A stretch of DNA of 64,000 nucleotides from the IMG/VR virus record IMGVR_UViG_3300002835_000040, one strand, 5' to 3'. The position numbers and the translations under genes are program-made. The first letter of the stretch is position 1, and each line of letters begins with the position of its first letter. The DNA comes from an uncultured virus (IMG/VR IMGVR_UViG_3300002835_000040) (taxonomy: Duplodnaviria; Heunggongvirae; Uroviricota; Caudoviricetes). A model generated the notes under the pieces. It did not search any database. It was given only the letters and a program-made list of their open reading frames with translations, and was not told the DNA's origin. Below, one piece after another: positions 1 through 45,501 of this stretch.

Positions 1-3000
1 CCTGATGAACCGCTAGTACCTGATGTACCAACACTACCACTTGAACCAGAAGAACCTGACGTTCCAACTGAACCTGAACTACCACTAGTCCCTGATGTAC
101 CAGCACTACCGCTAGAGCCTGAAGAACCGGATGTACCTACACTTCCCGATGAACCACTACTTCCGCTTGAACCAGATGTACCAACAGAACCAGAACTACC
201 ACTTGTTCCAGCACTACCACTAGAACCGCTACTACCTGATGTTCCTGAAGAACCGCTAGTTCCTGTTGAACCTGAACTTCCAGATGACCCAGTACTTCCC
301 GAAGAGCCGCTAGTACCAGATGAACCCGTACTACCACTTGAGCCTGAACTTCCTGATGTACCACTTGTACCTACTGAACCTGAGGTTCCACTTGTTCCTA
401 CACTTCCAGATGAACCTGAACTTCCACTTGAACCAGACGAACCTGAATTACCACTAGTTCCGCTTGACCCTGTACTTCCGCTAGAACCTGAACTTCCACT
501 TGAACCAGAAGAACCGCTAGTACCTACGCTACCTGATGACCCTGATGTTCCCGAACTACCACTAGAACCTGAAGTTCCAGAACTTCCTGAACTACCAGTC
601 GAGCCAGAACTTCCTGATGAACCACTACTACCGCTAGTACCTGAACTACCCGTACTTCCAGATGAACCTGAAGTTCCCGATGTACCTACACTACCACTTG
701 AACCTGATGTTCCAGTACTTCCTGACGTACCACTTGTCCCAACACTTCCTGATGTACCACTAGAACCTGATGTTCCTGAAGAACCGCTAGTTCCTCTTGA
801 ACCTGTTGACCCTGAACTTCCTGATGAACCAGAACTTCCACTTGAACCGGATGAGCCACTTGTACCTGATGAACCGCTAGTTCCAACACTTCCACTTGAA
901 CCAGAACTTCCTGAACTTCCACTTGTACCAGATGTACCTGACGAACCTGATGTCCCAACAGAACCAGAACTTCCTGAGCTTCCAGCACTTCCGCTAGAAC
1001 CTGACGAACCACTTGAACCTGATGTACCTGAACTTCCGTTAGCACCTGATGTACCCGACGAACCACTTGAACCAGATGACCCCGTACTTCCACTACTTCC
1101 TGAAGAACCAGAAGTTCCAGAACTTCCGCTTGTTCCTACACTACCACTAGACCCTGAAGAACCACTTGAACCAGATGTTCCACTAGTTCCAGAAGTACCA
1201 ACACTACCACTTGAGCCAGATGTTCCGCTAGTTCCTACACTACCTGAAGAACCTGATGTTCCACTAGTACCTACACTACCCGATGAACCTGATGTTCCAA
1301 CACTACCACTTGAACCTGAACTACCTGAAGAACCTGATGTTCCAACACTACCTGAAGAACCAGAACTACCTGATGTTCCTGAGGTTCCAGTACTTCCACT
1401 AGAACCTGCACTTCCTGAAGAACCACTTGAACCTGATGTACCAGAAGTTCCAACGCTACCACTACTACCTGAACTTCCACTTGAGCCGGTAATACCTGAA
1501 GTTCCACTTGAACCTGAACTACCTGATGAACCGCTAGTCCCTGTTGAACCAGAGGTTCCACTAGTTCCTGTACTTCCGCTAGAGCCTGAACTACCGCTAG
1601 TACCTACACTACCCGACGTACCAGAGCTTCCTGAAGACCCTGTACTTCCACTTGTACCTGATGTTCCAGTTGAACCACTTGTTCCTGAAGTCCCCGTTGA
1701 ACCTGATGTACCACTAGTTCCTGTACTTCCACTTGAACCGCTAGTTCCTGAAGTACCCGATGTTCCTCTTGAACCTGTAGAACCTGAACTTCCGGATGAA
1801 CCACTTGAACCAGAACTTCCTGAAGAACCAGATGTTCCTACACTTCCACTTGTACCAGCTGAACCTGAACTACCAGAACTTCCTGAAGACCCACTAGAAC
1901 CTGATGTTCCTGAAGAACCACTTGTACCTACTGAACCTGAACTTCCTGAAGAGCCACTTGTACCTACTGAACCTGAACTTCCAGCACTACCACTAGACCC
2001 TGAACTTCCACTGCTTCCATTGGCTCCCGATGTACCTGATGAACCAGAAGTTCCGCTAGAACCTGATGAACCAGAAGTTCCCGAAGTGCCTGATGTTCCA
2101 CTTGTACCACGACTTCCTGTAGAACCAGAACTTCCTGATGAACCAGTACTACCACTACTTCCTGACGTACCACTAGTACCACTTGAGCCAGATGTTCCTG
2201 AAGAACCTGAGCTTCCAGCACTACCACTACTTCCACTTGTTCCCGTAGAACCTGAACTACCAGCACTACCGCTAGACCCTGAACTTCCACTACTTCCTGA
2301 TGTACCAGCCGAACCACTTGTTCCTGTAGACCCAGACGAACCACTTGAACCCGAACTTCCTGAAGAACCACTTGAACCTGTTGAGCCAGAAGAACCTGAG
2401 GTTCCTGAACTACCACTTGAGCCACTAGTTCCAGTACTTCCCGAAGAACCTGAAGTACCTACACTTCCTGACGAGCCAGATGTTCCTGAACTTCCAGTAC
2501 TACCACTTGAACCCGAAGTACCACTTGTACCTGAGCTTCCAGCGCTTCCGCTAGAACCTGACGAACCACTAGTTCCTGAAGTACCCACACTTCCCGAACT
2601 TCCACTTGAACCTGAAGACCCAGTTGAACCCGATGTTCCACTTGTACCTGAACTTCCACTATTTCCTGACGAACCGCTAGAACCTGACGTTCCACTAGTA
2701 CCCGAAGTTCCTGATGTACCAACACTACCAGATGAACCTGAACTACCTGATGTTCCTGAGGTTCCATTAGTGCCGCTTGAACCAGATGTTCCTACACTTC
2801 CTGAGCTTCCACTAGTACCTGAAGTACCTACACTTCCTGAGGAACCAGATGTTCCGCTTGTACCTACAGAACCACTTGTTCCTGAAGAACCTGACGTACC
2901 AGTAGAACCACTTGTTCCTGAAGAACCTGACGTACCAGTAGAACCACTTGAACCTGTGCTACCGCTAGAACCTGACGTTCCTGAGCTTCCAGCGCTACCG

Positions 3001-6000
3001 CTAGAACCTGATGAACCACTTGTTCCAGATGTTCCGCTAGTTCCTACTGAACCAGACGTTCCACTAGTTCCAACAGAACCAGAACTTCCTGATGTTCCGC
3101 TAGTTCCTCTTGAACCCGTACTACCTGAAGAACCAGAACTTCCCGATGAACCGCTAGTACCTGAACTACCTGTTGAACCTGAACTTCCACTTGAGCCAGA
3201 TGAACCTGAAGTACCACTTGTTCCTACACTTCCACTTGTACCGGCAGAACCAGAACTTCCCGATGAACCACTTGTTCCTGATGTGCCAGAAGTTCCAACA
3301 CTTCCACTAGAACCAGATGTTCCGCTACTTCCTGAACTACCTGAAGACCCACTTGAACCTGAAGTTCCGCTAGTACCTGTAGTTCCTGATGAACCACTAG
3401 TACCTGAAGAACCTGATGTCCCACTTGTTCCCGCAGTTCCTGAAGAACCTGAAGAACCTGAAGTTCCACTTGAACCGCTAGTTCCCGATGTTCCTGTTGT
3501 ACCTGAAGTTCCGCTTGTACCTGACGAACCTGAAGTTCCACTTGTTCCTGTAGTACCGCTTGTGCCTGATGAACCTGACGTTCCACTCGTACCTGAAGAA
3601 CCACTAGTTCCCGATGTTCCTGTTGTTCCGCTAGTTCCTGAGGAGCCTGAAGTACCACTTGTACCTGAACTACCCGATGTTCCACTTGTTCCTGCAGTAC
3701 CACTAGTTCCTGACGAACCGCTAGTACCACTCGTTCCTGATGAACCTGATGTTCCTGAAGTACCACTTGAACCTGAAGTTCCGCTAGTACCTGAAGAACC
3801 ACTTGTTCCGCTTGTACCTGTTGTACCTGATGTTCCTGAACTTCCCGATGTTCCGCTAGTTCCCGAAGAACCACTTGTACCTGAGGTACCTGTAGTCCCA
3901 CTTGTTCCTGAAGAACCTGATGTACCACTTGTACCTGTTGTCCCTGATGAACCACTAGTTCCAGAAGTTCCACTTGAGCCTGATGTTCCGCTTGTTCCTG
4001 AAGAACCTGATGTCCCACTTGTTCCACTTGAACCGCTAGTTCCCGATGTTCCTGTTGTACCCGAAGTTCCTGATGAACCTGAAGTTCCGCTTGTACCTGT
4101 TGTTCCGCTAGTACCTGAAGAACCACTTGTACCTGACGAACCTGAAGTTCCACTTGTTCCTGAAGAACCACTAGTTCCCGATGTTCCTGTTGTACCCGAA
4201 GTTCCTGAACTACCCGAAGTTCCGCTAGTCCCTGTTGTTCCACTTGAACCTGATGTTCCACTTGTTCCCGAAGTACCACTTGAACCTGACGTTCCGCTAG
4301 TTCCTGATGTTCCACTTGTTCCTGTTGTACCGCTAGTTCCTGAAGAACCTGAAGTACCACTAGAACCTGAAGTTCCGCTAGTACCACTTGTTCCTGATGA
4401 ACCTGAAGTTCCACTAGTACCTGTAGTACCTGATGTACCACTAGAGCCACTTGTACCCGATGAGCCTGAAGTACCACTTGTACCCGTAGTGCCTGATGTA
4501 CCACTTGAACCTGAAGTTCCGCTTGTTCCTGACGAACCTGAAGTTCCGCTAGTACCTGTAGTACCTGATGAACCGCTAGTACCACTTGTTCCTGAACTAC
4601 CTGAAGTACCACTTGTTCCTGTAGTACCGCTAGTTCCTGAAGAACCTGATGTACCACTCGTACCTGAAGAACCCGAAGTTCCGCTAGTACCCGATGAACC
4701 TGAAGTTCCACTTGTTCCTGTAGTACCGCTAGTTCCTGACGAACCCGAAGTTCCGCTAGTTCCTGATGTTCCTGAAGAACCGCTAGTTCCACTTGAACCC
4801 GATGTTCCACTCGTACCCGATGAGCCTGAAGTACCACTTGTTCCTGTAGTACCACTTGTTCCCGATGAACCTGATGTTCCGCTTGTGCCTGAAGAGCCTG
4901 ATGTTCCGCTTGTTCCCGTAGTACCTGATGTCCCACTAGAACCTGAAGTTCCGCTAGTCCCTGATGAACCCGAGGTACCTGAAGTACCACTTGTTCCTGA
5001 AGAACCTGACGTACCACTCGTACCTGTAGTTCCAGATGTGCCTGAAGAACCACTTGTACCACTACTTCCTGATGTTCCTGAAGAACCGCTAGTACCCGAT
5101 GTACCCGAGCTACCTGATGTACCGCTCGTACCCGATGAGCCTGAACTACCACTTGTACCTGAACTACCACTTGAGCCAGATGTACCATCACTACCACTAG
5201 ACCCTGAACTTCCTGACGTGCCACTTGAACCTGAAGTTCCTGATGAACCAGTTAAACCAGAACTACCTGATGAACCTGAACTACCAGTAGAACCTGATGT
5301 ACCACTACTTCCTGAAGAACCTGTTGTTCCACTTGTACCACTAGTACCACTAGTACCAGCACTTCCTGAAGAACCTGAAGAACCTGTTGTTCCACTTGTA
5401 CCACTAGTACCTGCACTTCCTGAAGAACCTGATGTTCCACTAGTACCATTAGTTCCTGAAGTACCCGAACTTCCCGAAGAACCAGATGTACCTGTAGTCC
5501 CACTAGTTCCTGATGTTCCTGAAGAACCAGAACTTCCCGATGAACCACTTGTTCCTGTTGTTCCACTAGTACCTGAACTGCCACTTGAACCATTTACCCC
5601 ACTACTACCTGAACTACCACTTGAACCACTAATTCCTGAAGAACCTGATGTTCCCGATGAACCACTTGTTCCGCTTTCACCTGATGTTCCTGACGAACCA
5701 CTTGTCCCGCTTTGTCCTGATGTTCCACTTGAACCACTTGTCCCGCTTTGTCCTGATGTTCCACTTGAACCTGTTAATCCACTACTACCTGACGAACCTG
5801 TTGAGCCAGAGCTACCACTAGTACCAGTACTACCTGATGTACCCGATGAACCACTTGAACCTGAACTTCCCGATGAACCACTTGAACCTGAAGTTCCTGA
5901 ACTTCCGCTTGTACCAGAACTTCCCGAAGAACCTGACGTTCCACTTGTTCCCACACTTCCTGAAGAACCTGAGGAGCCAGATGTTCCTGATGTACCCGAA

Positions 6001-6315
6001 GAACCTCCAGTACCTGATAGTCCTGATGAACCACTTGTACCTGATGTTCCACTTGCACCATCAACACCATTAATACCTGATGTTCCAGCACTACCTGAAC
6101 TACCGCTAGTTCCAGTACTTCCCGAAGAACCGCTATCCCCTGATGAACCAGACGTTCCACTTGTTCCTGATGTACCCGCAGAACCAGAACTACCTGATGA
6201 ACCAGAACTACCTGAAGTTCCACTTGTACCTGCTGAACCTGAAGAACCAGAGCTACCTGAAGAACCACTTGTACCCGCAGAACCTGATGTTCCAGAACTA
6301 CCATTAGAACCAGAT
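1..6315 (-). repeat. Degenerate 9-nt-period coding repeat (~700 Gly-X-Y triplets)
   Basis: The plus strand reads ccN every ninth base (Pro every third residue in the antisense ORF), i.e. Gly every third residue on the minus strand. Synonymous codons vary extensively. Confidence 0.95.
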
Positions 6316-6932
6316 GCCGTAATACCTGTTACAGAAATAATAGTTCCATCACTATTATATAATTCTAATGTACTTGTACCTGAAAAATAAGTACCACCCG
6401 TTAATTCAGTACCTTGAGCAAAAACTCTCCATCTCGCATTTTCTCTTGTAACACCACTAACACCTTCAATAGTTGAGCCTGTCCAAGCATTAATAAATGC
6501 CTGACCTTCAGGTGTATTATTCTTTATAATAGTTTCGTAAGATAATTGAGTTACAGAATTAGCACTTACTGCAGCATCCCATAAATCATTGTAATTGTCT
6601 ATTTGATATTGATATGCCGTTTCAGTTTCATTAACCCAAACAATCATACCCAATCTTCTTCTACCCGAAGAGAAATTGTCAGAATTTAAAGTTAAATATG
6701 TTGGAGAAAATGTACCGTTACCAATGTTAATATTAATAGGTATATTATTAACACTTAATTGTTGTTGTCCTTGCCCACTAAATGTTAAACCTAAATTAGT
6801 AAGGTATGCCGCCTCTTGCCATCCACCAACATTTAAAACATTAAAATTGGTTCCGTATGGACTTGTTCTCGCTACACTGAAAGGTCCTGTAATTTGGGAC
6901 GCACTTATTGGATTTTGATACGGTATTGCCAT
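3..6932 (-). CDS. Giant Gly-Ser/Thr-Ser collagen-like repeat protein, putative virion fibre (3' partial, >=2310 aa; not in ORF track)
   Basis: Manual translation from ATG at 6932: MAIPYQNPISASQITGPFSVARTSPYGTNFNVLNVGGWQE...LNSDNFSSGRRRLGMIVWVNE..., then from ~6315 continuous G-X-Y (GSS/GTS/GTT/GSV). The same frame still reads G-T-S-G-S-S at positions 20->3. Its absence from the ORF track fits having no stop inside the window. The N-terminus is homologous to that of the 15743..17977 protein. Confidence 0.9.
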   Translation of the reverse strand, partial: MAIPYQNPISASQITGPFSVARTSPYGTNFNVLNVGGWQEAAYLTNLGLTFSGQGQQQLSVNNIPININIGNGTFSPTYLTLNSDNFSSGRRRLGMIVWVNETETAYQYQIDNYNDLWDAAVSANSVTQLSYETIIKNNTPEGQAFINAWTGSTIEGVSGVTRENARWRVFAQGTELTGGTYFSGTSTLELYNSDGTIISVTGITASGSNGSSGTSGSAGTSGSSGSSGSSGSAGTSGTSGSSGSSGSSGSAGTSGTSGTSGSSGDSGSSGSTGTSGSSGSAGTSGINGVDGASGTSGTSGSSGLSGTGGSSGTSGTSGSSGSSGSVGTSGTSGSSGSSGTSGSSGTSGSSGSSGSSGSSGSSGTSGSTGTSGSSGSTGSSGSSGLTGSSGTSGQSGTSGSSGTSGQSGTSGSSGTSGESGTSGSSGTSGSSGISGSSGSSGSSGVNGSSGSSGTSGTTGTSGSSGSSGSSGTSGTSGTTGTSGSSGSSGTSGTNGTSGTSGSSGSAGTSGTSGTTGSSGSSGSAGTSGTSGTSGTTGSSGSSGTSGSTGSSGSSGSSGLTGSSGTSGSSGTSGSSGSSGSDGTSGSSGSSGTSGSSGSSGTSGTSGSSGTSGTSGSSGTSGSSGTSGSSGTSGTTGTSGTSGSSGTSGTSGTSGSSGTSGTSGSSGTSGTTGTSGTSGSSGTSGTSGSSGTSGTTGTSGTSGSSGTSGTSGSSGTSGSSGTSGTSGTSGSSGTSGTTGTSGTSGSSGTSGTSGSSGTSGTSGSSGTSGTTGTSGTSGSSGTSGTSGSSGTTGTSGTSGSSGTSGTSGSSGTSGTTGTSGTSGSSGTSGSSGTSGTTGTSGTSGSSGTSGTSGTSGSSGTSGSSGTSGTTGTSGTSGTSGTSGSSGTSGTSGTSGSSGTTGTSGTSGSSGTSGTTGTSGTSGSSGTSGTSGSSGTSGSSGTSGTTGTSGTSGSSGTSGTTGTSGTSGSSGTSGTSGSSGTSGTSGSSGTSGTSGSSGTTGTSGTSGSSGTSGTTGTSGTSGSSGTSGTSGSSGTSGTTGTSGTSGSSGTSGTSGSSGTSGTSGSSGTSGTSGSSGTSGTAGTSGTSGSSGTSGTSGSSGTSGTTGTSGTSGSSGTSGTSGSSGTSGTTGTSGTSGSSGTSGTSGTTGTSGTSGSSGTSGSSGSSGTAGTSGTSGSSGTSGSSGTTGTSGTSGSSGSSGSSGSSGTSGSSGSVGTSGTSGTSGSSGSSGSAGTSGSVGTSGTSGSSGSSGSSGSTGSSGTSGSSGSSGSSGSTGSRGTSGTSGSSGSVGTSGTSGSVGTSGTSGTSGSSGSSGSAGSSGTSGSSGSTGSSGSTGTSGSSGTSGSTGTSGSSGTSGSVGTSGTSGSSGSVGTSGTSGSSGSVGTSGSSGTNGTSGTSGSSGSSGSVGTSGTSGTSGTSGSSGSSGNSGSSGTSGTSGSTGSSGSSGSSGSVGTSGTSGSSGSSGSAGSSGTSGTSGSSGSTGSSGTSGSSGSVGTSGSSGSTGTSGSSGSSGTSGSSGSTGSSGSSGSSGSSGSSGSTGTSGSAGTSGSSGSSGSSGSAGSSGSTGTSGSSGSAGSSGSSGTSGSSGTSGTSGSSGSTGSSGSSGSTGSRGTSGTSGTSGTSGSSGSSGTSGSSGTSGANGSSGSSGSSGSAGSSGSVGTSGSSGSSGSVGTSGSSGTSGSSGSSGSSGSSGSAGTSGSVGTSGSSGSSGSSGSSGSSGSTGSRGTSGTSGTSGSSGSTGTSGTSGSTGTSGTSGSTGTSGTSGSTGSSGSSGTSGSVGTSGSSGSSGSTGTSGTSGSTGTSGSSGSSGSSGTSGITGSSGSSGSSGSVGTSGTSGSSGSSGSAGSSGSTGTSGTSGSSGSSGSVGTSGSSGSSGSSGSVGTSGSSGSVGTSGTSGSSGSVGTSGTSGSSGSVGTSGTSGTSGSSGSSGSSGSVGTSGSSGTSGSSGSSGSTGSSGSSGSSGTSGANGSSGTSGSSGSSGSSGSAGSSGSSGSVGTSGSSGTSGTSGSSGSSGSSGSVGTSGSSGTSGSSGSSGSSGSSGSSGSTGSRGTSGSSGTSGSSGTSGSVGTSGTSGSTGTSGSSGSVGTSGTSGSSGSTGSSGTSGSSGSSGSSGSTGSSGSSGTSGSSGSSGTSGSSGSVGTSGSSGSSGSSGSSGSTGSSGTSGNSGSSGSSGSSGSSGSVGTSGTSGSVGTSGTSGSSGSSGSTGSSGTSGSSGSTGSSGSSGSTGTSGSSGTSGSSGSSGSAGTSGSSGSVGTSGSSGSSGSSGSVGTSGSSGSSGSAGTSGTSGSSGSVGTSGSSGSSGSVGTSGTSGSS

Positions 6933-6961
6933 TTTTTTACTTACTAATAATTATCTTTTTT

Positions 6962-8170
6962 TTAGGTTTTATACACCCCTTTGAAATAATAATTATTTTT
7001 ATCAGGAAGTTTTGGAGGTAACAATCCATCGTTAGACAAGTATAATACTCTATAAATCCCCGCAGGTATTGCTCCACCTGGAGTTATTGTAATATCCCCA
7101 ACCGAAATTTTAGGGTCAGGAGTTGCTAAAATATCAAAGTCACAAGGTTGTGATTGATAACCAACATTTACTGTCATGTTATTTAAACTTTCATCAACAC
7201 CCGCAAGTGGTATCCAAATCGTATACATGTACTGTAAACTAGTGTTAATAACACTATTATCAACTTCAATTGTTTCAAAAGTATATTGGTTAATTAAACA
7301 TCCAAATCTATCGTTAATTGTATTTGAAAATTGATTTATCGCACCTTTTAAATTTGTAGGTTTAACAAAGTTTCCTGTTCCACCTGTAAATCCTGAGTAT
7401 GATGCGTATTTGTTCATCATATAACTGTAGTTTGGACTTGTTGGTAATGGAAGTGCTCCCGAATTACCCCATCCGTACCAATTAACACTAGTATCAGGTG
7501 TTATACCGTCCGATAAGTAATACATATAACTTCCTAATCCATATAACGAACCACTTCCCGAAGAATCTTGCGGTTCCGCAAATACGTAAGCGTAATATAG
7601 AGGTGTTGTAATTGATGGTGTTGGGGTAAATGTTGGTGTTGGTGTAGTTGTTGGCGTAGGTGTTGATGTTGCTGTCGGTGTTAAAGATAGAGTTGGTGTA
7701 ACACTTGGAGTAATTGATGGTGTTGGAGTTGGTGTTGCCGGTAGAGCAGGTGCGTTACAACAAGGTCTATCAATAATGTAAGGATTATTAGTCGGATAAG
7801 AGTAAGAGTTTAAACTAAAACTACTAAGAACACTTACATAAATTTTTTGAGGTAGTGGTATAATAACAATACCCTGAGATGATTGTTTTAAAAACTGAAC
7901 TAAAAACTTACCTTCATTTTTTGTTTCTCTACTTGTGAATTGATAGTTCACATAATAAGTAATATCTAAAGGATTAACAGTAGACGCACTTGTTGTAATA
8001 TAACATTCTTTAGACGCTACAACATATTTCTTATTAAATTCGTCATATACCGAAATTAAAATTGTATTACCCGAAATATTTTCATTTAAACCAAAATCAC
8101 TTCTCCCGTCTTTTGATATCTCAACTTGGAAAACTGGTAACGTTGAATTTTTCTTAATAAACCATTCCAT
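6962..8170 (-). CDS. Virion adapter-like protein: BppU-like N-terminal domain + Thr-Pro linker + conserved C-terminal domain
   Basis: Likely start is MEWFIKKNSTLP at 8170, 1 nt after the upstream stop (track start 8197). The N-terminus is paralogous to 8172..8540. PTPTPSITP linker. The C-terminal domain (YAYVFAEP...MNKYASYSGFTGG...YTIWIP...YYFKG) is paralogous to 17987..18991. Confidence 0.7.
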   Translation of the reverse strand: MEWFIKKNSTLPVFQVEISKDGRSDFGLNENISGNTILISVYDEFNKKYVVASKECYITTSASTVNPLDITYYVNYQFTSRETKNEGKFLVQFLKQSSQGIVIIPLPQKIYVSVLSSFSLNSYSYPTNNPYIIDRPCCNAPALPATPTPTPSITPSVTPTLSLTPTATSTPTPTTTPTPTFTPTPSITTPLYYAYVFAEPQDSSGSGSLYGLGSYMYYLSDGITPDTSVNWYGWGNSGALPLPTSPNYSYMMNKYASYSGFTGGTGNFVKPTNLKGAINQFSNTINDRFGCLINQYTFETIEVDNSVINTSLQYMYTIWIPLAGVDESLNNMTVNVGYQSQPCDFDILATPDPKISVGDITITPGGAIPAGIYRVLYLSNDGLLPPKLPDKNNYYFKGVYKT

Positions 8171-8171
8171 A

Positions 8172-8540
8172 TTAAATAGATACGTAACTATTACCAATTT
8201 TTATCGTTAGTTTTTCTCTGATTGGTAAAATATAAGTTCCTGTATCAGTGATAAAAACAAACTCTCCTTCATAAAGTCCCTCTCTACTTGTATCGCTTGA
8301 AGTGAATTTATAATAAACATAGTATTCTGTCTCAGCATTTGGGTCAATAAATGTCTTTTCAACAAACCCTCCTTTCTTATTCAGAATTTTGTAACCCCCT
8401 GTTTTAACATCTATCATGGAAAAATAAATCAACGAGTTTTCTATCAGTGACATAAACTCTGTTATGTCAGCAATACCATCTTTAACCACTTGCATTTTAA
8501 GAACAGGCAGTGTTGCACCTTTGTTAATAAAAAATTCCAT
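8172..8540 (-). CDS. Small BppU-N-like (baseplate upper protein-like) Ig-fold protein
   Basis: MEFFINKGATLP...YYKFTSSDTSREGLYEGEF...ILP pattern resembles BppU N-terminal-type domains. Paralog of the next gene's N-terminus. Confidence 0.55.
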   Translation of the reverse strand: MEFFINKGATLPVLKMQVVKDGIADITEFMSLIENSLIYFSMIDVKTGGYKILNKKGGFVEKTFIDPNAETEYYVYYKFTSSDTSREGLYEGEFVFITDTGTYILPIREKLTIKIGNSYVSI

Positions 8541-8569
8541 TAATAGTTTTTTAAATAAATATCAAAAAA

Positions 8570-10240
8570 TCAACATTCTTTCCTTAAATTACTATCATAA
8601 TGTTCAAATCTATTATGTTCGGTAGGTGTGAGTAATAAAATACCTGGTTTTAATTTACCTTTAATTGTGTTTTGGAAGTTGTGAGACATTAAAGTTTGTT
8701 CATACGGGTGTTGATATTTTGTCTCCAAATAACATTTATAACTCCCACTTTTTGAAAGAATTATCGGCCAATTACACAAATAGATTTCCCCTGACGCATA
8801 AGGTAAACCCTTATGTGTTTTTATCTCGTTGAATTTTGTTTTTGGAGCGTTCGGGTCTAATCCCTGTTGAGGTAGTTTTGGATTTTTTGGCCAATGTTGT
8901 TCTCTGAAATTTTGTGGTACATTATACCAACTCCATTGAGTACTATTATCACCATAAAACTCTGAAAAATTTAATTTTAAAAAATCAAAGTTTTCTTTAT
9001 TAACTATCTCTAAACTTTTTTGATATAGATTACTTGCATACCTATTAAACCCATTTCTACACACTTCATTTTTTTGTGAATAAAAAAACATATCATCCTC
9101 AAAGAATAACATATAGTCCAACCCTGTTTCATCAAAATGTTCCGCAGTCCATTGTCTTCCACCTGTAATACCTATGTTATCTTTTTTAATATGTTCAAAA
9201 TCATATTCTTTACAAAGTCTCAAGTATTCTTCTGTTGTTGATAGGTCAGTTGAGTTATCCAATAAAAATTTCTTTGGTCTGTCTAAGAAATCCCTATCAT
9301 ATTCAATCATAGATTTAATTAATGTTTCAAATTGTTTTGGAGAATTGAATGTTATTACATACAATGCAACTTTATCCATATCTAAGTCATTTTGAATTTT
9401 AACAAACTCTGTCTTTTTAACTAAAACATCATCTTTTAAATCCTCAAAGAATTTTCCAAATAAACCATTATATTCAATTTCAAAATAATTTATATATTCA
9501 CTTAACTTATAAACCATTATTGAAAATATTGACTCCTCAGTTCCCATATACCCACTTGATAATGTATCATTCAATAGGTTATAGTATTCACCATTCATCT
9601 GTGATATGGTTTCTTTTGGTCCCCCAAAAAACCCACCTCGAGCAACTTTCTTCACATCATCTTCAGCCCATTCATTAATCTTTGGATATGAAAATCCGTG
9701 TATCTCATTACTTGCGTCGTATGGAAAACAAACAAATGTAAACTTATCAATATACTTACTTAAATTATTTAAAACCTTATCGTGTGTGAAATATCCGGGA
9801 TGAACAGTATTTGTAAGACCCGCATCAATCCAAAATAAAAACTCTGAATTAAATCTATCAAAAATCCTTGCGTCGTTTAATAAAAACATTTTTGACATAA
9901 CAAGTGGATTATACATTTCTAATCTACCTTGTGTTGATTCCTTTAACCAACCTGATTGATTATACCATTCGGGATTGTTTCTGATTTGTTGTATTTTATT
10001 ATAAAAGTCATTTTCAACAAACCAACTTTTATCTCTTAAAATAAATTGTGTATTACTTTGGTCTCTTTTTTCCCAAACAAAATCTTCCAATTCTTTTTCA
10101 CCAAAAATTATTAAGTTTTCTTCAACTTTTAATAGTTGTTCAAATTTTTCTAAATAATGTGAAAAAGAACGAGACCAACCTTCTTCAAGATTTTCTCTAC
10201 CAATATTCCACAATCCTGTAACTAATGTAATATTACTCAT
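8570..10240 (-). CDS. Two-domain glycosyltransferase: HtrL/YibB(WlaTC)-like + GT-A (GT2-like) domain
   Basis: N-half: TLVTGLWNIGR, FWIDAGL, GGFFGG, GTEESIF. C-half: LYVITFN, LLDNSTD, NIGITGGRQ, FFEDDM (DxD-like). Confidence 0.75.
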   Translation of the reverse strand: MSNITLVTGLWNIGRENLEEGWSRSFSHYLEKFEQLLKVEENLIIFGEKELEDFVWEKRDQSNTQFILRDKSWFVENDFYNKIQQIRNNPEWYNQSGWLKESTQGRLEMYNPLVMSKMFLLNDARIFDRFNSEFLFWIDAGLTNTVHPGYFTHDKVLNNLSKYIDKFTFVCFPYDASNEIHGFSYPKINEWAEDDVKKVARGGFFGGPKETISQMNGEYYNLLNDTLSSGYMGTEESIFSIMVYKLSEYINYFEIEYNGLFGKFFEDLKDDVLVKKTEFVKIQNDLDMDKVALYVITFNSPKQFETLIKSMIEYDRDFLDRPKKFLLDNSTDLSTTEEYLRLCKEYDFEHIKKDNIGITGGRQWTAEHFDETGLDYMLFFEDDMFFYSQKNEVCRNGFNRYASNLYQKSLEIVNKENFDFLKLNFSEFYGDNSTQWSWYNVPQNFREQHWPKNPKLPQQGLDPNAPKTKFNEIKTHKGLPYASGEIYLCNWPIILSKSGSYKCYLETKYQHPYEQTLMSHNFQNTIKGKLKPGILLLTPTEHNRFEHYDSNLRKEC

Positions 10241-11108
10241 ATTTAATATCCTCTAACGCCTTGTAAAAACTTTTATTTATTGTAAAATAATCCTCAGGTA
10301 GACCTGGAGGCCCATTTGTTTCATGCCACCATGTTTCAAAATAGAACATTTTAAACATATCAATATAATTTTGATACATTAATGATAAAATCTGTTCTTC
10401 AAACCATAGCCCTTTGGTGTCCTCAACTATTTCTTTAAGGTTCTGTTCAAACACCTCAACTAATTTTATAAAATTATTTTTTTCACCCCCAAAAATACCC
10501 CCAATAATATGTAATGAATTATCATATATTTTATAAAACTTCGGTGGGACAGTACCACTCCAATAATTCCTAACATTATCTTTTCCAATAATTAATATTT
10601 TATCATCACTTTTATTTATTAATTTATTTAAAAAATCATTATCAAAAAAATGACTGTTGTAGTACCCTTGGTATTCGTCATTATGTTCCAAATATTTGTC
10701 GGGTAGTAATCCACAATGTGATAATCCAGCATCTATCCAATAATAATAATCATATGACATATCCTCATTTAAGAACCAAAAAAACTTGTTATACTGTATT
10801 TCAAAACATCTATCACCAGTTTTAACTGACTCAACATTTTTAAAATTTTTAATTAAATTAAAATGATTACTATCCTCTAAATTAAATCCAACAATCTGTA
10901 ATTGATTTTCAGAAATATTATTTTCAGAATAAAAAAAATGTTTTAGTTGTTCAATTTCTTCATTACTTGTATAACAAACAAAATTAGCGTTTGTCATTCT
11001 TAACAATGATATTAGACTCCAACGATAGTGATTATCTCTATTTTGTCTTCCACCATAATCAGTTCCATTTAAATTAGAGTATATTGCGGTTATAAATTTA
11101 ACTTTCAT
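10233..11108 (-). CDS. HtrL/YibB(WlaTC)-like glycosyltransferase
   Basis: YYYWIDAGLSH, IIGGIFGG, FEEQILSLM. Paralogous to the N-half of 8570..10240. Confidence 0.7.
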   Translation of the reverse strand: MKVKFITAIYSNLNGTDYGGRQNRDNHYRWSLISLLRMTNANFVCYTSNEEIEQLKHFFYSENNISENQLQIVGFNLEDSNHFNLIKNFKNVESVKTGDRCFEIQYNKFFWFLNEDMSYDYYYWIDAGLSHCGLLPDKYLEHNDEYQGYYNSHFFDNDFLNKLINKSDDKILIIGKDNVRNYWSGTVPPKFYKIYDNSLHIIGGIFGGEKNNFIKLVEVFEQNLKEIVEDTKGLWFEEQILSLMYQNYIDMFKMFYFETWWHETNGPPGLPEDYFTINKSFYKALEDIKYE

Positions 11109-11817
11109 ATTTTAATATTTGATTGTTATTATAATCCATATATTCTGATGGTATTTTTACAGGTGAGTATCCATTCCAATTATATGTTTGAGTATAAAAA
11201 TTGTTATAAACATCGTGTGACACATCTGAATAAGAACTTCGTTGAGGAGCGATTGGTAAATTTGGACAATAACTTTGGAAATTAGGGTATATTACTTTAG
11301 CAAGGAACCCATCTATCGGATAAAAATAATTTCCGTCATGGAACTTTTCCTCCGAAATTTTAAACATCTCATCATATATTTTTTCATCGTATATTAGAAT
11401 GTTTGTCGCAAAAGTTTCGGTTAAATAATCATGTTTTTTTTCAGGTAACTTTGTTAAGTCCAATAATAAATCACAATCATCACTAATGTTAACATGTCTA
11501 TTTAATGTTGGTGATAGATTTAATACATAATAATTTAAATCGTTCATTTTTAATTCAATCTCTTCCAATAGTTTTTTTGAATACGGCATAAAGACACAAT
11601 CATCTTCAATAACCATAACTTTATGGTAACCTCTTTCTTTAGCAATTTTGATGATTTCTAAATGAGATAAAGTACATCCCATATATCCATTCATATCAAT
11701 AGCTTTAAAAATTTCAAAGTCCCAAGACATGTATTTCATTTCTTGGGTTATTTCATTTAGTCTCTCAGGTCGTTTTTCTAAATTGATTACAAATTTTGGT
11801 ATGTCTATAAATCTCAT
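11098..11817 (-). CDS. Glycosyltransferase family 25-like
   Basis: FVINLEKRPERL, GCTLSHL, VMVIEDD are the GT25 (Lic2A/LgtB-type) motifs. Confidence 0.85.
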   Translation of the reverse strand: MRFIDIPKFVINLEKRPERLNEITQEMKYMSWDFEIFKAIDMNGYMGCTLSHLEIIKIAKERGYHKVMVIEDDCVFMPYSKKLLEEIELKMNDLNYYVLNLSPTLNRHVNISDDCDLLLDLTKLPEKKHDYLTETFATNILIYDEKIYDEMFKISEEKFHDGNYFYPIDGFLAKVIYPNFQSYCPNLPIAPQRSSYSDVSHDVYNNFYTQTYNWNGYSPVKIPSEYMDYNNNQILKYES

Positions 11818-13058
11818 AAGTTTCCTGTTATTCTATCACACCACCCTTTAGATTCCGAGTGAGGCCAAACCACCCAATATTTAGGTTTTGAATCAGTTAA
11901 GAACTCTCTCCAAACTTTACAATAACCATCAGGGTCTCTTAACATTCTATCAACTTCACCTTTATCAGCATCTTGTCTGTAAATGGTTTCATCTAATTCA
12001 TTATGGAAAGCAACTACCCAAAAGTCATAATCCTTTTCAGGTACTTGAGTAAACCCAATATCAATACAATGTTTGAATACCGATGTGAATGATTTTAACC
12101 ATTCCTCTTCTGAATTGAAGTTGTTTGGATTTGGTGGATAACCTTTATCTAATGTATATTGTTGAACAGCTCTCTTTGAAAATAGAAGTCCTGAATATTT
12201 TTCATAGTCTCTTAAAGTTCTAACTTTACCAAAACCATACTTTCCGTGTTTCATATCTTCCTCACCATCCATACCAAATAGAGAACGATTTTTCTTATGA
12301 GCGAAATTATTCTTATCCACCCATTCTTTATCGTCATCCCATTGTTTGGTTCTACCCTTACGAGTATATTCATGCCAAATCAAAACTTTATGTGGGTGGA
12401 ATAAATCATATCCATGAGTGTAAGCTCTTGCGGCAATTGAAATCTCTTCACCATGAAAATAAAACTCAGGGTCATGTTGAACTTCTTTAGCAAACTTACC
12501 AAGAGTAAAACAGAAGTGAGCAGAGTAAAATCTTGCGGTAACAGGTTCAGTTAAATTTTGCCAACCCGGTATTGTCTCAGGTAAAAAGAAAACCGCACCT
12601 TCAGGAATAAATCTATCAAACGCCATTCTCCACGGTTCGTTAACACGTAAGTTTGGGTCATTGTCAGGGTCAAACGATGAAACATAACCTGTCAATAAAG
12701 GTTTCTTATATCCTTTTTTTTGAAGTTGTTTAATCATCTTAATCATCTCATCATCCCAATTTTGACCGAACCTCATGTGTGAGTCAATTTGGAGGGTGTA
12801 ATTTTCTTTATCATACACTTGTTGTATTTGATTTCTTGCCCAACATGCTCCTCTAGATTCATAATAAGGAATATCAATTATTCTAAATCTTTCATCATCT
12901 CTATATTCATCTAAATTATCAAAATTATCATCGCGATGATACTGACGAGCGATACCGAAAACTAAGTTTTCAGGTCGTTTAGCATTTTCTAATGCTGACT
13001 TTATAGTCGGGATTAACTGTGGGTCTCTATAAGACGCAACTTGTATAAAAATTTTCAT
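11814..13058 (-). CDS. GT60-like polypeptide N-acetylglucosaminyltransferase (Gnt1/'GlcNAc' family) with extra C-terminal domain
   Basis: IFIQVASYRDPQL, RGACWAR, LQIDSHMRF (DSH motif), FHGEE, ARAYTHGYDLFHP, WHEY match Dictyostelium Gnt1 / trypanosome OGNT-type enzymes. Confidence 0.85.
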   Translation of the reverse strand: MKIFIQVASYRDPQLIPTIKSALENAKRPENLVFGIARQYHRDDNFDNLDEYRDDERFRIIDIPYYESRGACWARNQIQQVYDKENYTLQIDSHMRFGQNWDDEMIKMIKQLQKKGYKKPLLTGYVSSFDPDNDPNLRVNEPWRMAFDRFIPEGAVFFLPETIPGWQNLTEPVTARFYSAHFCFTLGKFAKEVQHDPEFYFHGEEISIAARAYTHGYDLFHPHKVLIWHEYTRKGRTKQWDDDKEWVDKNNFAHKKNRSLFGMDGEEDMKHGKYGFGKVRTLRDYEKYSGLLFSKRAVQQYTLDKGYPPNPNNFNSEEEWLKSFTSVFKHCIDIGFTQVPEKDYDFWVVAFHNELDETIYRQDADKGEVDRMLRDPDGYCKVWREFLTDSKPKYWVVWPHSESKGWCDRITGNL

Positions 13059-34853: not shown

Positions 34854-36692
34854 TTAAGAGAAATTAACAGTACCTAAATTTAAAGTACTCACAGTAATGT
34901 CCTTATTTGGGAATCTAATTTGATAAATTTGTGATGGTGTTGCAAATAATGTTTCATTAATCAATCCAATTTGTTTTGTAGCACTATCACTATACGGTTG
35001 AGATGTTTGATTTGAGGAATATAAACCTCCAACTAAATTAAATACATTTAGCTCACTAATAGATAAAACACCATTTAATGATTGTATTAATCTTTTTAAT
35101 TCTGACATATAAACATTTTCACCCATGTTCCTGTTTAAAGGACTAAAAAAAGTATCCACAGTGTTAATTATATTTGTAACAACAGCTCCTTGATTTTGTG
35201 TTGAGTCTAATACTACACTAATATCAATTTTTAAATCAATAACCTCAGCACTTTCAACTGAAATATAATCATTAATCATTCGATAATTTGAGAGATAATT
35301 TGACACATTTGTTTTTAAACTACTTGTTAAATTTGAATCTAATTTACCTTCGTCATCAAACGTTAACATTTTAACTTTAATTTTATTATCCTCTTCAGTT
35401 ATTGCAACTTTAGCCGGTGCTCCAAACTGAGACGGCATTTTTCTCAAAATTGAGTTATAATCATTAATTGTTACCGCTCTATTTTGAGAAGAGAAATTAA
35501 ATCCAATTAAATTTCTAACCTCTTCAATTGTTGGTACATTAGCACCTCCAACAGCTGCGGTAACATTGGTACAAGACATACTATTAATAACCGAACTATT
35601 AATTGATTGATTTGGCCCATTAACCGCAAAATTTATCGTACCAATTTGGTTGATAACCCCTGTACCTAAATTAGTCCCCAATCCACCACCAATTCTATAT
35701 TGAACAAATAATGTTGTATTTGGTGTGATTGTTGAACCTAAAGATAAATTGTTCGAGTATTTGGATAAATCTAAAGGTGTACCATTTCTAGCAAATTCTC
35801 TTAATAGTTCATCTGTTGACTGACTTCCCCCACCAAATGTCATTTTTAAAAATCCTTGAGGTGTGTATTCAGTTATAAATTTATCACTTGTTTGAAGATA
35901 TCTGCCAACTTTTTTTCCAGCCGCACTTTGTGAACCTGTCGGGTCTTCTACAAATATCCTATCTTGTGCTAAAGCGTCAACCTCATACCACCTATTATTT
36001 AATCCTAAAAATTCTTCAACAGACGGAACATTATTATAGTTTAGTCCATCTTTTAATAAAACACTTGTAACACCTAAAACATTTTTTTCAGGTAAAAATA
36101 ATTCTAAAAATGGTCTTGACTCAGAGGTAGTAATTGTTTTTCTAAATACTTTAGTAATACCATTAACTACGGGTTCTCTTTTAGTAATTCTATAATTTAT
36201 TGTTGTACCATTTGCGTTTTGAATTGGTGTTTTAGTTCTATTTCTAAAACCTTCACTATTTGTTTCCTTTGAGAAATCTATATCATTTGCAGTTTCAAAC
36301 ACTTGTCCAGCTCCGTATACTTGTGAACCTCTTCTTAATATTCCACAATATTTAATATTTTCTTTATCTCCCTCAACAGGAACTACAATTGAAAAATCAA
36401 CTAAAGCAACTGACGGTCTTTGTCCAGGTATTTTAAGTCCATATGTTCTCGCAATGTTATATATTGATGAACTCTGTTGAGCATATTGTAAAACAGTTTC
36501 TTGTATACCTCTATCAATATGATAATGTAAATTATCCGTAACTGCAGCATTAAGGTCTAAAAATACTGAGAAAACCGCTGCATCATTAACATTTTGAATT
36601 AACTCAGGATAGTAAGCTTTAACAAAATTTACTAACTCTTGTCTTATATTTTGAAAGTCCCTTGTTGTGTATGATATTTGTTTGTTTGCCAT
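34854..36692 (-). CDS. Baseplate wedge subunit (T4 gp6 / P2 gpJ-like)
   Basis: RDFQNIRQELVNF, SSIYNIARTYG, YRIGGG..TN, GGANVPTIEEVR, QNRAVTINDY. Confidence 0.9.
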   Translation of the reverse strand: MANKQISYTTRDFQNIRQELVNFVKAYYPELIQNVNDAAVFSVFLDLNAAVTDNLHYHIDRGIQETVLQYAQQSSSIYNIARTYGLKIPGQRPSVALVDFSIVVPVEGDKENIKYCGILRRGSQVYGAGQVFETANDIDFSKETNSEGFRNRTKTPIQNANGTTINYRITKREPVVNGITKVFRKTITTSESRPFLELFLPEKNVLGVTSVLLKDGLNYNNVPSVEEFLGLNNRWYEVDALAQDRIFVEDPTGSQSAAGKKVGRYLQTSDKFITEYTPQGFLKMTFGGGSQSTDELLREFARNGTPLDLSKYSNNLSLGSTITPNTTLFVQYRIGGGLGTNLGTGVINQIGTINFAVNGPNQSINSSVINSMSCTNVTAAVGGANVPTIEEVRNLIGFNFSSQNRAVTINDYNSILRKMPSQFGAPAKVAITEEDNKIKVKMLTFDDEGKLDSNLTSSLKTNVSNYLSNYRMINDYISVESAEVIDLKIDISVVLDSTQNQGAVVTNIINTVDTFFSPLNRNMGENVYMSELKRLIQSLNGVLSISELNVFNLVGGLYSSNQTSQPYSDSATKQIGLINETLFATPSQIYQIRFPNKDITVSTLNLGTVNFS

Positions 36693-36693
36693 A

Positions 36694-37155
36694 TTATATA
36701 TTAATTATTACAAAACTACTTGAGTTAAAGACATCATTTGTTATTTGATAATCAATTCTTACTTTAGCAGTATATTCTTTAGTTGCTAATCCTGGTATTG
36801 TTAATTGTGTATTTACAACATTTCCTTCTGTTGTAACATATGGTCCGGCTTCTTCTGATGAAAGAGCGGTAACCCTTATTGATGTTATCAATAAGTTAGG
36901 TATATATGTCTCCACAGAATCTTTAATCTCCGATTCAATATCATTAAATGTTGGTCCATCTAATGGTTCAAAAATATATTCATACAATCTTGTACCAAAA
37001 TCAGGTAAAAAATATCTACTACCTTTTCGAGTTAATAATAAATGTATTAAATTATTTTTAATCTCATCACTAGTAGTTTCAGATAAATTAAGATATTTTC
37101 CAGTTAAGGAATCACCAAAAGGAAAATTAATACCGTATGTTACACCATTACCCAT
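36694..37155 (-). CDS. Baseplate wedge subunit gp25-like
   Basis: IKNNLIHLLLTRKGSRYFLPDFGTRLYEYIFEP is the GPW/gp25 signature. Confidence 0.92.
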   Translation of the reverse strand: MGNGVTYGINFPFGDSLTGKYLNLSETTSDEIKNNLIHLLLTRKGSRYFLPDFGTRLYEYIFEPLDGPTFNDIESEIKDSVETYIPNLLITSIRVTALSSEEAGPYVTTEGNVVNTQLTIPGLATKEYTAKVRIDYQITNDVFNSSSFVIINI

Positions 37156-39650: not shown

Positions 39651-39670
39651 AGTTCTATATAAGTAATAAA

Positions 39671-40630
39671 TTAGAAATCGTCAGTAAAGGACAAAGTTTC
39701 ATTTAATTTAGCCTTTTGGTATTCAACAGTTCTTGACTCAAAGAAATTACCTTTTGTTTCAACTGCGATTTGTTCCATAAATTTGAACGGTTGTTCAACA
39801 TTAAATTGTTTTTTACATCCAAATTTTACTAATAATCCATCAACCACAAACTCAAGATATTGTTTCATTAAATTTGAATTCATACCAATAAGTGAAACTG
39901 GTAGAGATTCAGTAATGAACTCTTTTTCAATCTCTAATGCTGACAATAGAATTTCTTTAATTCTTTTTTCACTCGGTTTGTTTTCAATGTGATTGTTTAA
40001 TAAGTGAATTGCAAAGTCACAGTGTAGGTTTTCATCTTTGAAAATCAAAGCGTTAGCATTACACAATCCTTGCATAATACCTCTTGATTTCAACCAAAAG
40101 ATAGAACAGAATGAACCTGAAAAGAAGATACCTTCTACCGCAGCAAACGCAACCAATCTTTCTTGGAACGACGCATTTTCAATCCAATCCAAAGCCCATT
40201 TAGCCTTCTTCTGAACTGCAGGTAGGTTATCTAAAGCAGTAAAACATTTGTTCTTCTCATCTTCATTTGACACGTAAGTATCAATAAGAAGTGAGTACAT
40301 TAGACTATGGATGTTTTCCATTGCTAACTGAATTCCGTAAAAGAATTTTGCCTCAGGATATTGTACTTCTCTGTAGAAATTCTCAGCCAAGTTTTCATTT
40401 ACAATACCATCTGATGCTGCGAAAAACGATAAAATATTTTTTACAAAATACTGTTCATTCTCTGATAAGTTTTCCCAATCACGTAGGTCACCACTTAAAT
40501 CTATTTCTTCTGCCGTCCAAAACGCAGCTTGATGCATCTTATAATATTCCCAAATATCGTTGTACTTGATTGGGAATATTACAAAACGATTTGGATTTTC
40601 TACTAAAATTTTTTCCATTTTTTGTTCCAT
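39671..40630 (-). CDS. nrdB: Ribonucleoside-diphosphate reductase class Ia beta subunit
   Basis: [51 protein letters not shown]. Confidence 0.97.
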
Positions 40631-40643
40631 ATTGTTTTAATAA

Positions 40644-42014: not shown

Positions 42015-42039
42015 ATTATGTTTGTTTTTAGAATAAATA

Positions 42040-42492: not shown

Positions 42493-42500
42493 AATTTATG

Positions 42501-43505: not shown

Positions 43506-43514
43506 GAACTAAAA

Positions 43515-44507: not shown

Positions 44508-44547
44508 AAATGTCTATGATTTAATTTGTTTGTTGTTTAAAAATAGC

Positions 44548-44586
44548 AAAGGTTGGACACTTTGTGTATGTTAGTGTCCAACCTTT
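44548..44586 (-). terminator. Perfect 14-bp hairpin downstream of the SSB gene (terminator or processing/stability element)
   Basis: AAAGGTTGGACACT-N11-AGTGTCCAACCTTT. Confidence 0.6.
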
Positions 44587-44592
44587 TATAAA

Positions 44593-45432: not shown

Positions 45433-45461
45433 TTTGTGTGTATAATTTATTAGTTAATATT

Positions 45462-45493
45462 CAAGTATAAGTGTGTCAGCCGTAATAGTCAAA
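45462..45493 (-). promoter_or_regulatory. Host-RNAP-type promoter at the head of the replication block
   Basis: Minus strand TTGACT-N17-TATACT (45492-45464). The same bases read TTTG-N20-TATACTTG, one mismatch from the Bacteroidota -33/-7 consensus. Confidence 0.65.
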
Positions 45494-45501
45494 TTCGAAA
45501 T

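Follow-up and report, generated by a model that had tools for sequence, protein, structure and literature searches.

What kind of protein does a phage encode when glycine recurs at every third residue of a frame that is still open where the sequence ends? This question is posed by one end of a 64,000-nucleotide stretch of the IMG/VR record IMGVR_UViG_3300002835_000040, an uncultured virus of the Caudoviricetes; the whole stretch is referred to as the window. The open reading frame (ORF) concerned, here called the giant fibre gene, leaves the window at its edge, and the total length of this copy is therefore not fixed (Table 1). In the reading that we favour, to which we give an even chance, the product would be a trimeric, O-glycosylated tether of the collagen type, anchored to the tail, at least 0.6 µm long and used for long-range host capture or adhesion.

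Dissection of the translation separated an ordinary, non-repetitive domain (residues 1-207) from a shaft of 701 Gly-X-Y triplets, in which glycine stands first in every triplet and neither a register break nor a stop codon occurs. The X position is occupied by Ser (366), Thr (318) or other residues (17), and the Y position by Ser (573), Thr (61), Val (33), Ala (20), Asn (7), Arg (4), Asp (2) and Gly (1). Ser and Thr account for 94% of X and Y taken together and for 63% of all shaft residues, and the most frequent triplets are GTS (289), GSS (275), GST (34), GSV (33), GTT (24) and GSA (18). The 2103 shaft residues include no Pro, no Lys, four Arg, three Asp and one Glu, i.e., eight charged residues in all, and are devoid of aromatic residues, Cys, Met and His. 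On residues 201-500 the Pfam Collagen model PF01391 reached 149.6 bits (E 2e-44; cut-off 27.2), in four stretches.

A first-pass annotation of this DNA had described an ORF of more than 2300 residues with an N-terminal domain of ~205 residues, glycine at each third position and an almost exclusive, Pro-free Ser/Thr filling of X and Y, and had quoted the triplets GIN, GVD, GAS and GQS. All of these features were recovered, and an in-frame stop or frameshift, looked for on the translation, was absent from all 701 triplets. A fibrillar collagen chain has ~338 triplets, in agreement with the earlier statement that the shaft exceeds twice that length, and the predicted extension of at least 600 nm follows from 2103 × 0.286 nm (~600 nm, a minimum). 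The claim of exceptional length thus stands for size. The length is less singular than that annotation implied, as passages of PMC11923368 put prokaryotic collagen-like chains at up to 2000 triplets.

Glycine at each third residue combined with small side chains is formally also compatible with a polyglycine-II (PGII) bundle, in which the chain would be folded back on itself, perhaps with ice- or surface-binding faces; the same annotation had offered such a PGII or ice-binding type of polymer as an alternative. The antifreeze protein of the snow flea and the PGII sandwich found in phage gp38 adhesins share these two properties with the shaft. PGII bundles, however, consist of short helices joined by turns, with glycine well above one third and Gly-Gly-X triplets. 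In the shaft, glycine makes up one third of the residues (33.4%), a second glycine is found in one of 701 triplets, a Gly-Gly-X pattern is missing and no turn or loop interrupts the 701 triplets. In addition, Pfam assigns the repeat to Collagen, and relatives of the protein show the beads-on-a-string layout of extended fibres and the architecture of trimeric, collagen-like phage fibres. We found no support for a PGII bundle and consider it scarcely credible.

The array is no simple DNA microsatellite. In all 132 Tandem Repeats Finder rows over it, the period is a multiple of 9 and the match 56-100%. Four glycine codons are used in the shaft (GGT 380, GGA 257, GGC 33 and GGG 31), serine is drawn from both the TCN and the AGY boxes, and codon shares in the shaft agree almost exactly with the values for nine further window genes (GGT 0.54 in both, TCA 0.37 versus 0.38, ACA 0.53 versus 0.49). 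The GC content of 0.48-0.49 over positions 1-6000, compared to 0.27-0.38 in the rest of the window, is raised because of the Gly, Ser and Thr codons. On the plus strand, a frame at 1..6390 (2129 codons) is open as well, and its translation would be a polymer of Pro, Glu, Val and Leu; this frame has neither a conserved start nor a flanking domain and looks like a by-product of the Gly-Ser/Thr codons.

To compare strains, repeat blocks were aligned in frame, with the caveat that aligned blocks within a repeat may be paralogous. Between the window and the related locus L001, glycine codons differ at 0 of 264 first, 0 of 264 second and 21 of 264 third positions. The corresponding numbers are 7, 13 and 12 of ~263 for X codons and 7, 6 and 13 of 260 for Y codons. 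Glycine codons compared with a further relative, L036, differ at 0, 0 and 20 of ~143 positions. Glycine is under purifying selection, and selection for Ser/Thr is looser. Because the first two glycine positions are invariant while the third varies, codon usage matches that of the phage, and near-identical copies come from independent assemblies, we regard the giant fibre as a real, selected gene.

A search with the N-terminal domain recovered 29 IMG/VR loci, one of which (L013) is identical to the window across all that it covers. The frame closes in 12 of them, giving proteins of 2435 residues (L001, L004, L008), 2429 (L002), 1998 (L009, L010, L012, L014), 1295 (L011, a deviant form), 1290 (L027), 278 (L028) and 816 (L029). 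Fourteen loci stop inside the repeat, as the window itself does, and three were viewed over 10 kb only, where the frame was still open. Extension of the L005 contig (240,759 bp) yielded a complete gene of 4766 residues with 1431 Gly-X-Y triplets and no N in its DNA; the longest uninterrupted run, of 1168 triplets, belongs to this relative (L036). Flanking sequences of the strains are ~95% identical to the window and yet the repeat architecture differs. Repeat length is therefore hypervariable among near-identical strains, and thread length would be a rapidly evolving trait.

Such a repeat invites the question whether short-read assemblers inflated, collapsed or shuffled part of a real gene, so that 701 or more triplets would not be found in one molecule. 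The many contigs that end inside the repeat would fit this explanation, as would two loci (L003 compared with L001, and L011 compared with L009) that share an identical 10-kb upstream region with their partner and then diverge mid-repeat, L011 closing early with a short out-of-pattern tail; strain variation or misassembly inside the repeat could each account for this divergence. However, the repeat units are only 56-100% alike and therefore assemblable, and the frame stays open in perfect register through 6.3 kb in the window and 14.3 kb in L036. Moreover, three groups of records from different metagenomes carry the same long arrays: L005, L006 and L007 differ by 1-4 nucleotides over 10,615 nucleotides of the gene, and no difference was seen among L001, L004 and L008 over 7308 nucleotides or among L009, L010, L012 and L014 over 5997 nucleotides.

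Sequencing runs from lake water were consulted in addition. Each of 19 lake-water DNA runs contained at least 79% of the sampled words, and in all four runs examined exact pieces of the window array recur at about single-copy flank depth (eight pieces in run X1 and seven or eight per run in the remaining three). In the Logan contigs the repeat is broken up into pieces of 200-600 bp, between which many alternative joints exist, and this again would suit an assembly artefact; no contig bridging the repeat was present in the four runs, and array parts lacking long Logan pieces carry no information. One RNA run contained 7% of the sampled words, which has no bearing on expression. Taken together, there is good support for the gene and for its great length; the exact array of the window's strain is not secured. 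Repeat inflation by assembly is possible in detail and unlikely in kind, and as an explanation of the giant fibre we rate it very improbable.

The non-repetitive N-terminus links the protein to a family of fibres. A domain of ~185 residues heads 37 long proteins of 1272-2510 residues (E 3e-74 to 6e-20), 36 of which have no Gly-X-Y run of eight or more triplets. Three of the 37 (P0007, P0008 and P0019) end in a Peptidase_S74 chaperone domain, and P0018, of which the whole sequence was viewed, has a repetitive, non-collagen shaft. We read this domain as a virion-docking domain that can bear very different shafts. It belongs to no Pfam, PHROG or NCBIfam family, and 50,697 deposited phage records gave no protein match and thus no cultured member. 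Its AlphaFold2 (AF2) model is of moderate quality (predicted local distance difference test score, pLDDT, 65); a Foldseek search with it returned nothing from the PDB at E ≤ 0.001 and only an uncharacterised homologue from BFVD.

The same domain is found a second time in the window, on a fibre of ordinary size. The first 183 residues of this 744-residue paralogue are 46% identical to the N-terminus of the giant (E 1e-45), and the protein matches Pfam Collagen (E 9.8e-13) and tail-fibre PHROGs. Each of the two fibre genes is preceded by a partner gene whose product has a linker of the TPTPSITPS... type, and the partners of 411 and 334 residues are weakly homologous (E 2e-7). Since the 411-residue partner and the giant thus mirror the 334-residue partner and the 744-residue fibre, the unit of partner and anchor-domain fibre is duplicated in the window. 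The 411-residue protein, the true start of which is probably at residue 10, has no family in Pfam, PHROG or NCBIfam, and the Atlas gave only unnamed viral clusters scoring below 0.9. Both partners may act as adaptors for the fibres or take part in their assembly, and both are possible substrates of O-glycosylation.

Complete relatives show how the chain ends. A domain of ~110 residues is followed by 11-47 triplets and by a hydrophobic tail of 16-19 residues, GGTFTLG(L/I)VYTTANNFNFI, and in some relatives internal nodules of ~118 residues are homologous to the terminal domain. A profile of this bead (SGRW...TISWVxN) matched 818 representative proteins at E ≤ 0.001, many of them with several copies, and Gly-X-Y runs were present in 89 of 149 bead proteins examined. 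The AF2 model of the bead (pLDDT 94.6) is a small beta-barrel with one helix. Its best Foldseek E value (5e-3) and its best VIA Z score (6.1, among generic beta-barrels of phage tail proteins) are too weak to name the fold. A three-copy prediction for the C-terminal 252 residues of L001, in which the alignment was not used, gave a score of 0.03 with an uncertain partner fold and speaks neither for nor against a trimer.

Shafts of this composition are not restricted to the relatives of the giant fibre. Among 120 large proteins (1270-4043 residues) sampled from the 8000 best candidates of a repeat search, Pro-free, Ser/Thr-dominated Gly-X-Y was common, with a maximum of 227 triplets in total and 108 in one run, and by our count ~35 of the 120 also have Peptidase_S74. 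Ser/Thr Gly-X-Y thus represents a widespread, unstudied variant of phage collagen-like fibres, of which the clade of the window is the extreme in length. No description of Ser/Thr-only phage collagen fibres, or of a link between them and TibC-type enzymes, was found in the literature searched, which lay outside subscription journals.

If the shaft forms a triple helix, it would most likely be held by sugars, because the chains are without proline and charge pairs. The glycosyltransferases that the first-pass annotation had mentioned next to the gene are indeed recognised by Pfam: three enzymes, of the PF11397, GT25 and HtrL/YibB-like types, sit 1.6-6 kb upstream of the giant gene and could act on the fibre or on other targets. 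The PF11397 enzyme of 414 residues has homologues in four jumbo phages at 45-47% identity. The HtrL/YibB-like protein of 556 residues reached 63.8 bits with the NCBIfam model TIGR02192, far under the cut-off of 264.9. Searches of PDB sequences with each of the three enzymes gave no match, and NCBIfam yielded nothing for them beyond this sub-threshold YibB match. We take PF11397 to correspond to CAZy family GT60. According to passages of PMC9472816, GT60 includes a polypeptide alpha-GlcNAc transferase of T. cruzi that starts mucin glycosylation on Thr. For collagen repeats, parts of PMC7157674 describe the addition of O-GlcNAc by SgtA to Thr inside those of BclA3, and parts of PMC11923368 report that (Gly-Pro-Thr)10 is triple-helical only if galactosylated and a random coil without sugars.

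A second candidate source of sugars emerged from the relatives. In the 240-kb relatives G002 and G004, the TibC/Aah model TIGR04414 scored 267 bits against a cut-off of 200. Enzymes of this type are protein serine glycosyltransferases and attach sugars at many Ser residues within a repetitive surface protein. In G002 the gene closes, together with a GT4 domain, a glycosylation island (211309-222276) that further comprises a GT4-FkbM-DegT fusion, a second FkbM methyltransferase, a PglD-like acetyltransferase, a GT2 enzyme and further methyltransferases; this content suggests the synthesis and transfer of a modified amino sugar. In the divergent relative L027, a TibC-type homologue (29% identity, E 2e-58) is separated by 3 kb from the Gly-X-Y fibre of that relative, and none was within reach in the other loci of L001-L029 or in the window.

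The main rival is a mucin-like brush, in which an intrinsically disordered Ser/Thr chain with dense O-glycosylation would be held at its N-terminal domain and extended as a bottle-brush by its sugars. Such a brush could be a sticky or protective tether that, for instance, adheres to host capsule or lake gels or shields the tail. A Ser/Thr content of 63%, the lack of Pro or charge to stabilise a helix, the flanking glycosyltransferases and the Thr/Pro linkers of the partners, typical of O-glycosylated spacers, would all suit this explanation, as would the start of mucin-type O-glycosylation by GT60 in T. cruzi, provided that the assumed tie to PF11397 holds. However, a brush requires no fixed register, and yet glycine is kept in 701 of 701 triplets here and through the run of 1168 in L036, unbroken by any single-codon insertion or deletion. 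Its first two codon positions are invariant between strains while the third varies. The S74 chaperone, which is specific to trimers, is present in proteins that bear homologous Ser/Thr Gly-X-Y runs, and mucin domains are usually Pro-rich. On balance we hold the brush to be unlikely, and prefer the glycosylated collagen-type tether.

The register and the selection on glycine would be explained equally well by an unglycosylated, cold-stable triple helix, weak per triplet and stable through its length, hydroxyl-water networks and the low temperature of the lake, with the glycosyltransferases acting on host lipopolysaccharide (LPS), phage DNA or other virion proteins. Passages of PMC7029224 read the fibre-island glycosyltransferases of aquatic (pelagic) T4-like myophages as modifiers of host LPS. 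The 556-residue protein shows, in its C-terminal part, a weak likeness to a T4-type glucosyltransferase PHROG (phrog_842, E 9.8e-5), so that DNA is a possible target. An association of PF11397 with Gly-X-Y proteins was sought via phage XacN1 and none was seen: its PF11397 homologue has no Gly-X-Y neighbour, and a neighbouring giant of 3313 residues is without a Gly-X-Y run. On the other side, sugar-free (Gly-Pro-Thr)10 is a random coil and the shaft is even less helix-favouring, and genes for TibC/Aah-type enzymes are present in two close relatives as well as next to the L027 fibre gene. A helix without sugars is, in our estimation, improbable.

The LPS, DNA and XacN1 observations count equally against the glycosylated tether that we prefer, and so do the following points. 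Checked for imino acids or Lys-Glu/Asp pairs in X and Y, the shaft lacks both types of collagen stabiliser, and parts of PMC11923368 present Lys-Glu/Asp clamps as general in collagen-like proteins. The C-termini of L001 and L036 match Pfam Collagen only, with no trimerisation or chaperone domain such as Peptidase_S74, and the modelled bead fold, for which no clear counterpart is known, offers no functional clue. TIGR04414 found no match in the 104-kb fragment G003 or in the window, and in G002 the TibC-type gene (220144-222276) and the fibre gene are 37 kb apart. Alternative substrates of glycosylation would be available in the Thr/Pro linkers of the two partners. Finally, the loci that stop inside the repeat or diverge within it, and the want of a bridging contig, bear on array length and order in each strain.

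From the sequence, the selection on glycine, the fibre-family anchor domain, the gene neighbourhood and the recurrence across assemblies and lake-water runs, we infer a trimer, a triple helix, glycosylation, a virion location and a function as follows. The N-terminal domain of ~205 residues would dock the giant fibre on the tail or baseplate, in the same way as the ordinary-sized fibre of this phage would be docked. Three chains would then most likely wind into an extended, polyproline-II-like helix of the collagen type, held and protected by dense O-glycosylation of Ser and Thr. The sugars would be supplied by phage enzymes, namely the upstream PF11397/GT25/HtrL-like cluster and, in close relatives, the TibC/Aah-type island. 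In complete relatives, the shaft is tipped by the beta-barrel bead, the short Gly-X-Y stretch and the hydrophobic tail. The product would be a flexible thread of ~0.6 µm (the minimum for the window) to 1.2 µm (the 4766-residue relative). For a large virion that diffuses slowly in dilute lake water, such a thread would enlarge the capture radius or, alternatively, serve as a tether to host surface polysaccharide. Of the glycosylation-stabilised whisker proposed in the first-pass annotation, the long whisker has thus gained support from the tail-fibre module and the fibre-type anchor domain, and the glycosylation and the triple helix are as conditional as before. A bolder version, which we regard as possible though rather unlikely, is that of a third chemical type of collagen: an uncharged, imino-acid-free triple helix of 700 to more than 1100 uninterrupted triplets (0.6-1.2 µm), which only dense phage O-glycosylation would fold and hold. 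It would be a 'fishing line' of evolvable length with which a jumbo virion could catch hosts at distances well beyond its own dimensions, and a natural exception to the proline/salt-bridge folding code proposed as universal.

Several known systems share parts of this architecture. Collagen-like tail fibres of phages and prophages (PF01391, often with a C-terminal Peptidase_S74; an example is the E. coli O157:H7 prophage fibre in parts of PMC3368898) likewise have a Gly-X-Y shaft, globular ends and a place in the tail-fibre module. The giant shaft differs from them in being Pro-free, almost uncharged and at least 701 uninterrupted triplets long (1168 in a relative), and its clade ends in a bead and short tail rather than in S74. 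The repeat number of BclA, from the Bacillus exosporium, varies between strains. BclA and the BclA3-SgtA pair of Clostridioides difficile (parts of PMC7157674) have a collagen-like filament whose Thr residues in Gly-X-Y are O-glycosylated by an enzyme encoded nearby. These filaments are found on bacterial spore surfaces and have tens of Pro-rich, GPT-type triplets, whereas the giant fibre is encoded by a phage, lacks Pro, places Ser/Thr in X and Ser in Y, and is longer by a factor of 10-20. The E. coli systems TibC-TibA and Aah-AIDA-I (TIGR04414) employ the enzyme family that is found above the cut-off in two close phage relatives, but their known substrates are beta-helical autotransporter adhesins without Gly-X-Y, and the phage version of the enzyme has a GT4 domain fused to it. 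The cuticle collagen of vent worms carries glycosylated Thr. In such collagens, and in galactosylated (Gly-Pro-Thr)10 (parts of PMC11923368), sugars on hydroxyls replace hydroxyproline as the stabiliser. Glycosylated-Thr collagens retain Pro in X and Thr in Y, unlike the giant shaft with Ser/Thr in X, mostly Ser in Y and no imino acid. As here, the mucins of T. cruzi and GT60 (parts of PMC9472816 and PMC3769586) combine an extended, Ser/Thr-rich surface polymer with a glycosyltransferase. Those mucins are Pro-rich and have no Gly-X-Y register, unlike the giant shaft, and the comparison presupposes the tie between PF11397 and GT60.

The window is a tightly packed stretch of a myophage with all genes on the minus strand. 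Its gene content includes sheath, tube, T4-type baseplate and gp25-/gp6-like wedge genes (Pfam, PHROG). The source appears to be a myophage of ~240 kb from lake water, uncultured and with a tail of the T4 type; its sheath shows 31-38% identity to the sheaths of cultured phages of Microcystis, Flavobacterium and Synechococcus. The giant gene lies downstream of the wedge genes, on the strand that it shares with sheath and tube. Below the wedge genes follow large structural proteins, the 334-residue partner, the 744-residue fibre, the Laminin_G_3 protein, which is probably a structural or receptor-binding protein, the PA14/GLEYA protein, the glycosyltransferases, the 411-residue partner and the giant (Table 1). 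Synteny around the fibre is the same in L025-L029.

Table 1 Features of the window that bear on the giant fibre gene.
Feature	Position	Strand	Remarks
Giant fibre gene	3..6932	-	Single ORF of 2310 codons; ATG at 6932; no stop up to the window edge
Fibre shaft	3..6311	-	Residues 208-2310; C-terminal part beyond the window
N-terminal domain, putative anchor, ~205 residues	6312..6932	-	Conserved core SDNxSSGRRRxGM
Partner gene, 411 residues	6962..8197	-	Directly upstream of the giant; long Thr/Pro/Ser linker
122-residue ORF	8172..8540	-	No family (Pfam, PHROG, NCBIfam); position kept in L001 and L009
HtrL/YibB-like putative glycosyltransferase, 556 residues	8570..10240	-	PF09612, E 2.1e-13
291-residue ORF in the glycosyltransferase cluster	10233..11108	-	No family (Pfam, PHROG, NCBIfam)
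GT25 glycosyltransferase, 239 residues	11098..11817	-	PF01755, E 1.1e-13
PF11397 ('GlcNAc') glycosyltransferase, 414 residues	11814..13058	-	229.6 bits, E 9.9e-68; phrog_24687, E 2.4e-170
PA14/GLEYA lectin-like protein, 287 residues	13128..13991	-	PF10528, E 1e-18; PF07691, E 4.4e-15
Laminin_G_3 (concanavalin-A-like) protein, 544 residues	14139..15773	-	PF13385, E 5.2e-17; phrog_8510 'virion structural protein', E 4.8e-16
Paralogous ordinary-sized fibre, 744 residues	15743..17977	-	Same N-terminal domain; ~42 Gly-Ser/Thr-Ser triplets; globular C-terminal part
Partner of the paralogous fibre, 334 residues	17987..18991	-	Thr/Pro/Ser linker
Baseplate wedge genes (gp6/Baseplate_J-like, gp25-like)	34854..37155	-	PF04865, PF04965; baseplate-wedge PHROGs

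The nearest whole-genome record, G001, is without the giant gene, and no near DNA match to positions 6318-13058 of the window was found among deposited phages. In some strains two very long collagen-like genes stand in tandem: directly downstream of the 1998-residue fibre, L009:16148-20614 encodes a second giant of at least 1489 residues (Pfam Collagen, E 5e-53). Just downstream of the giant gene in L001 (17956-19743) and G002 (183733-186408), an ORF of 139 residues is accompanied by two or three paralogues of ~290-300 residues that match PF21722, the Glycine-rich domain of Pfam (E 9e-9 and 5e-7), which may be distal fibre-tip or adhesin components.

Further genes of the window are recorded here as observations in their own right. 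Between two groups of tail and baseplate genes, positions 37218-46182 (minus strand) hold genes for both subunits of ribonucleotide reductase, a DnaB-like helicase, a 5'-3' exonuclease, a UvsX-like recombinase and a gp32-like protein, an unusual interleaving of modules. Three large ORFs at 29118-34793, 46438-52518 and 52831-57561 (minus strand; 1891, 2026 and 1576 residues) match no Pfam family, and the sole PHROG clue is a weak match on a neighbouring ORF of 107 residues; presumably they are baseplate or tail structural proteins. A protein of 714 residues at 19018-21162 (minus strand) combines SprB repeats with CarboxypepD_reg-like and Hoc-like Ig domains. The presence of SprB repeats, a repeat type characteristic of Bacteroidota, is a weak hint at the host. 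Membership in the lineage of 'Moraphage', described in parts of PMC12619734 as large aquatic phages with core glycosyltransferases, could not be established.

Collagen helices are thought to require proline or hydroxyproline or Lys-Glu/Asp clamps, and here a perfect register is kept over thousands of residues with neither. If the shaft folds, it would show how far glycosylation or hydroxyl-water networks alone can sustain a triple helix, and it would offer a simple, charge-free and sequence-uniform scaffold for biomaterials. The fibre family is abundant in lake metagenomes, with no cultured representative found among the deposited phage records searched. If the proposed tether is real, phages of this family would carry threads several times the length of the virion, which change in length fast between strains, and a phage protein-glycosylation system may be dedicated to the phage's own fibres, with a bearing on how hosts are found in dilute water.

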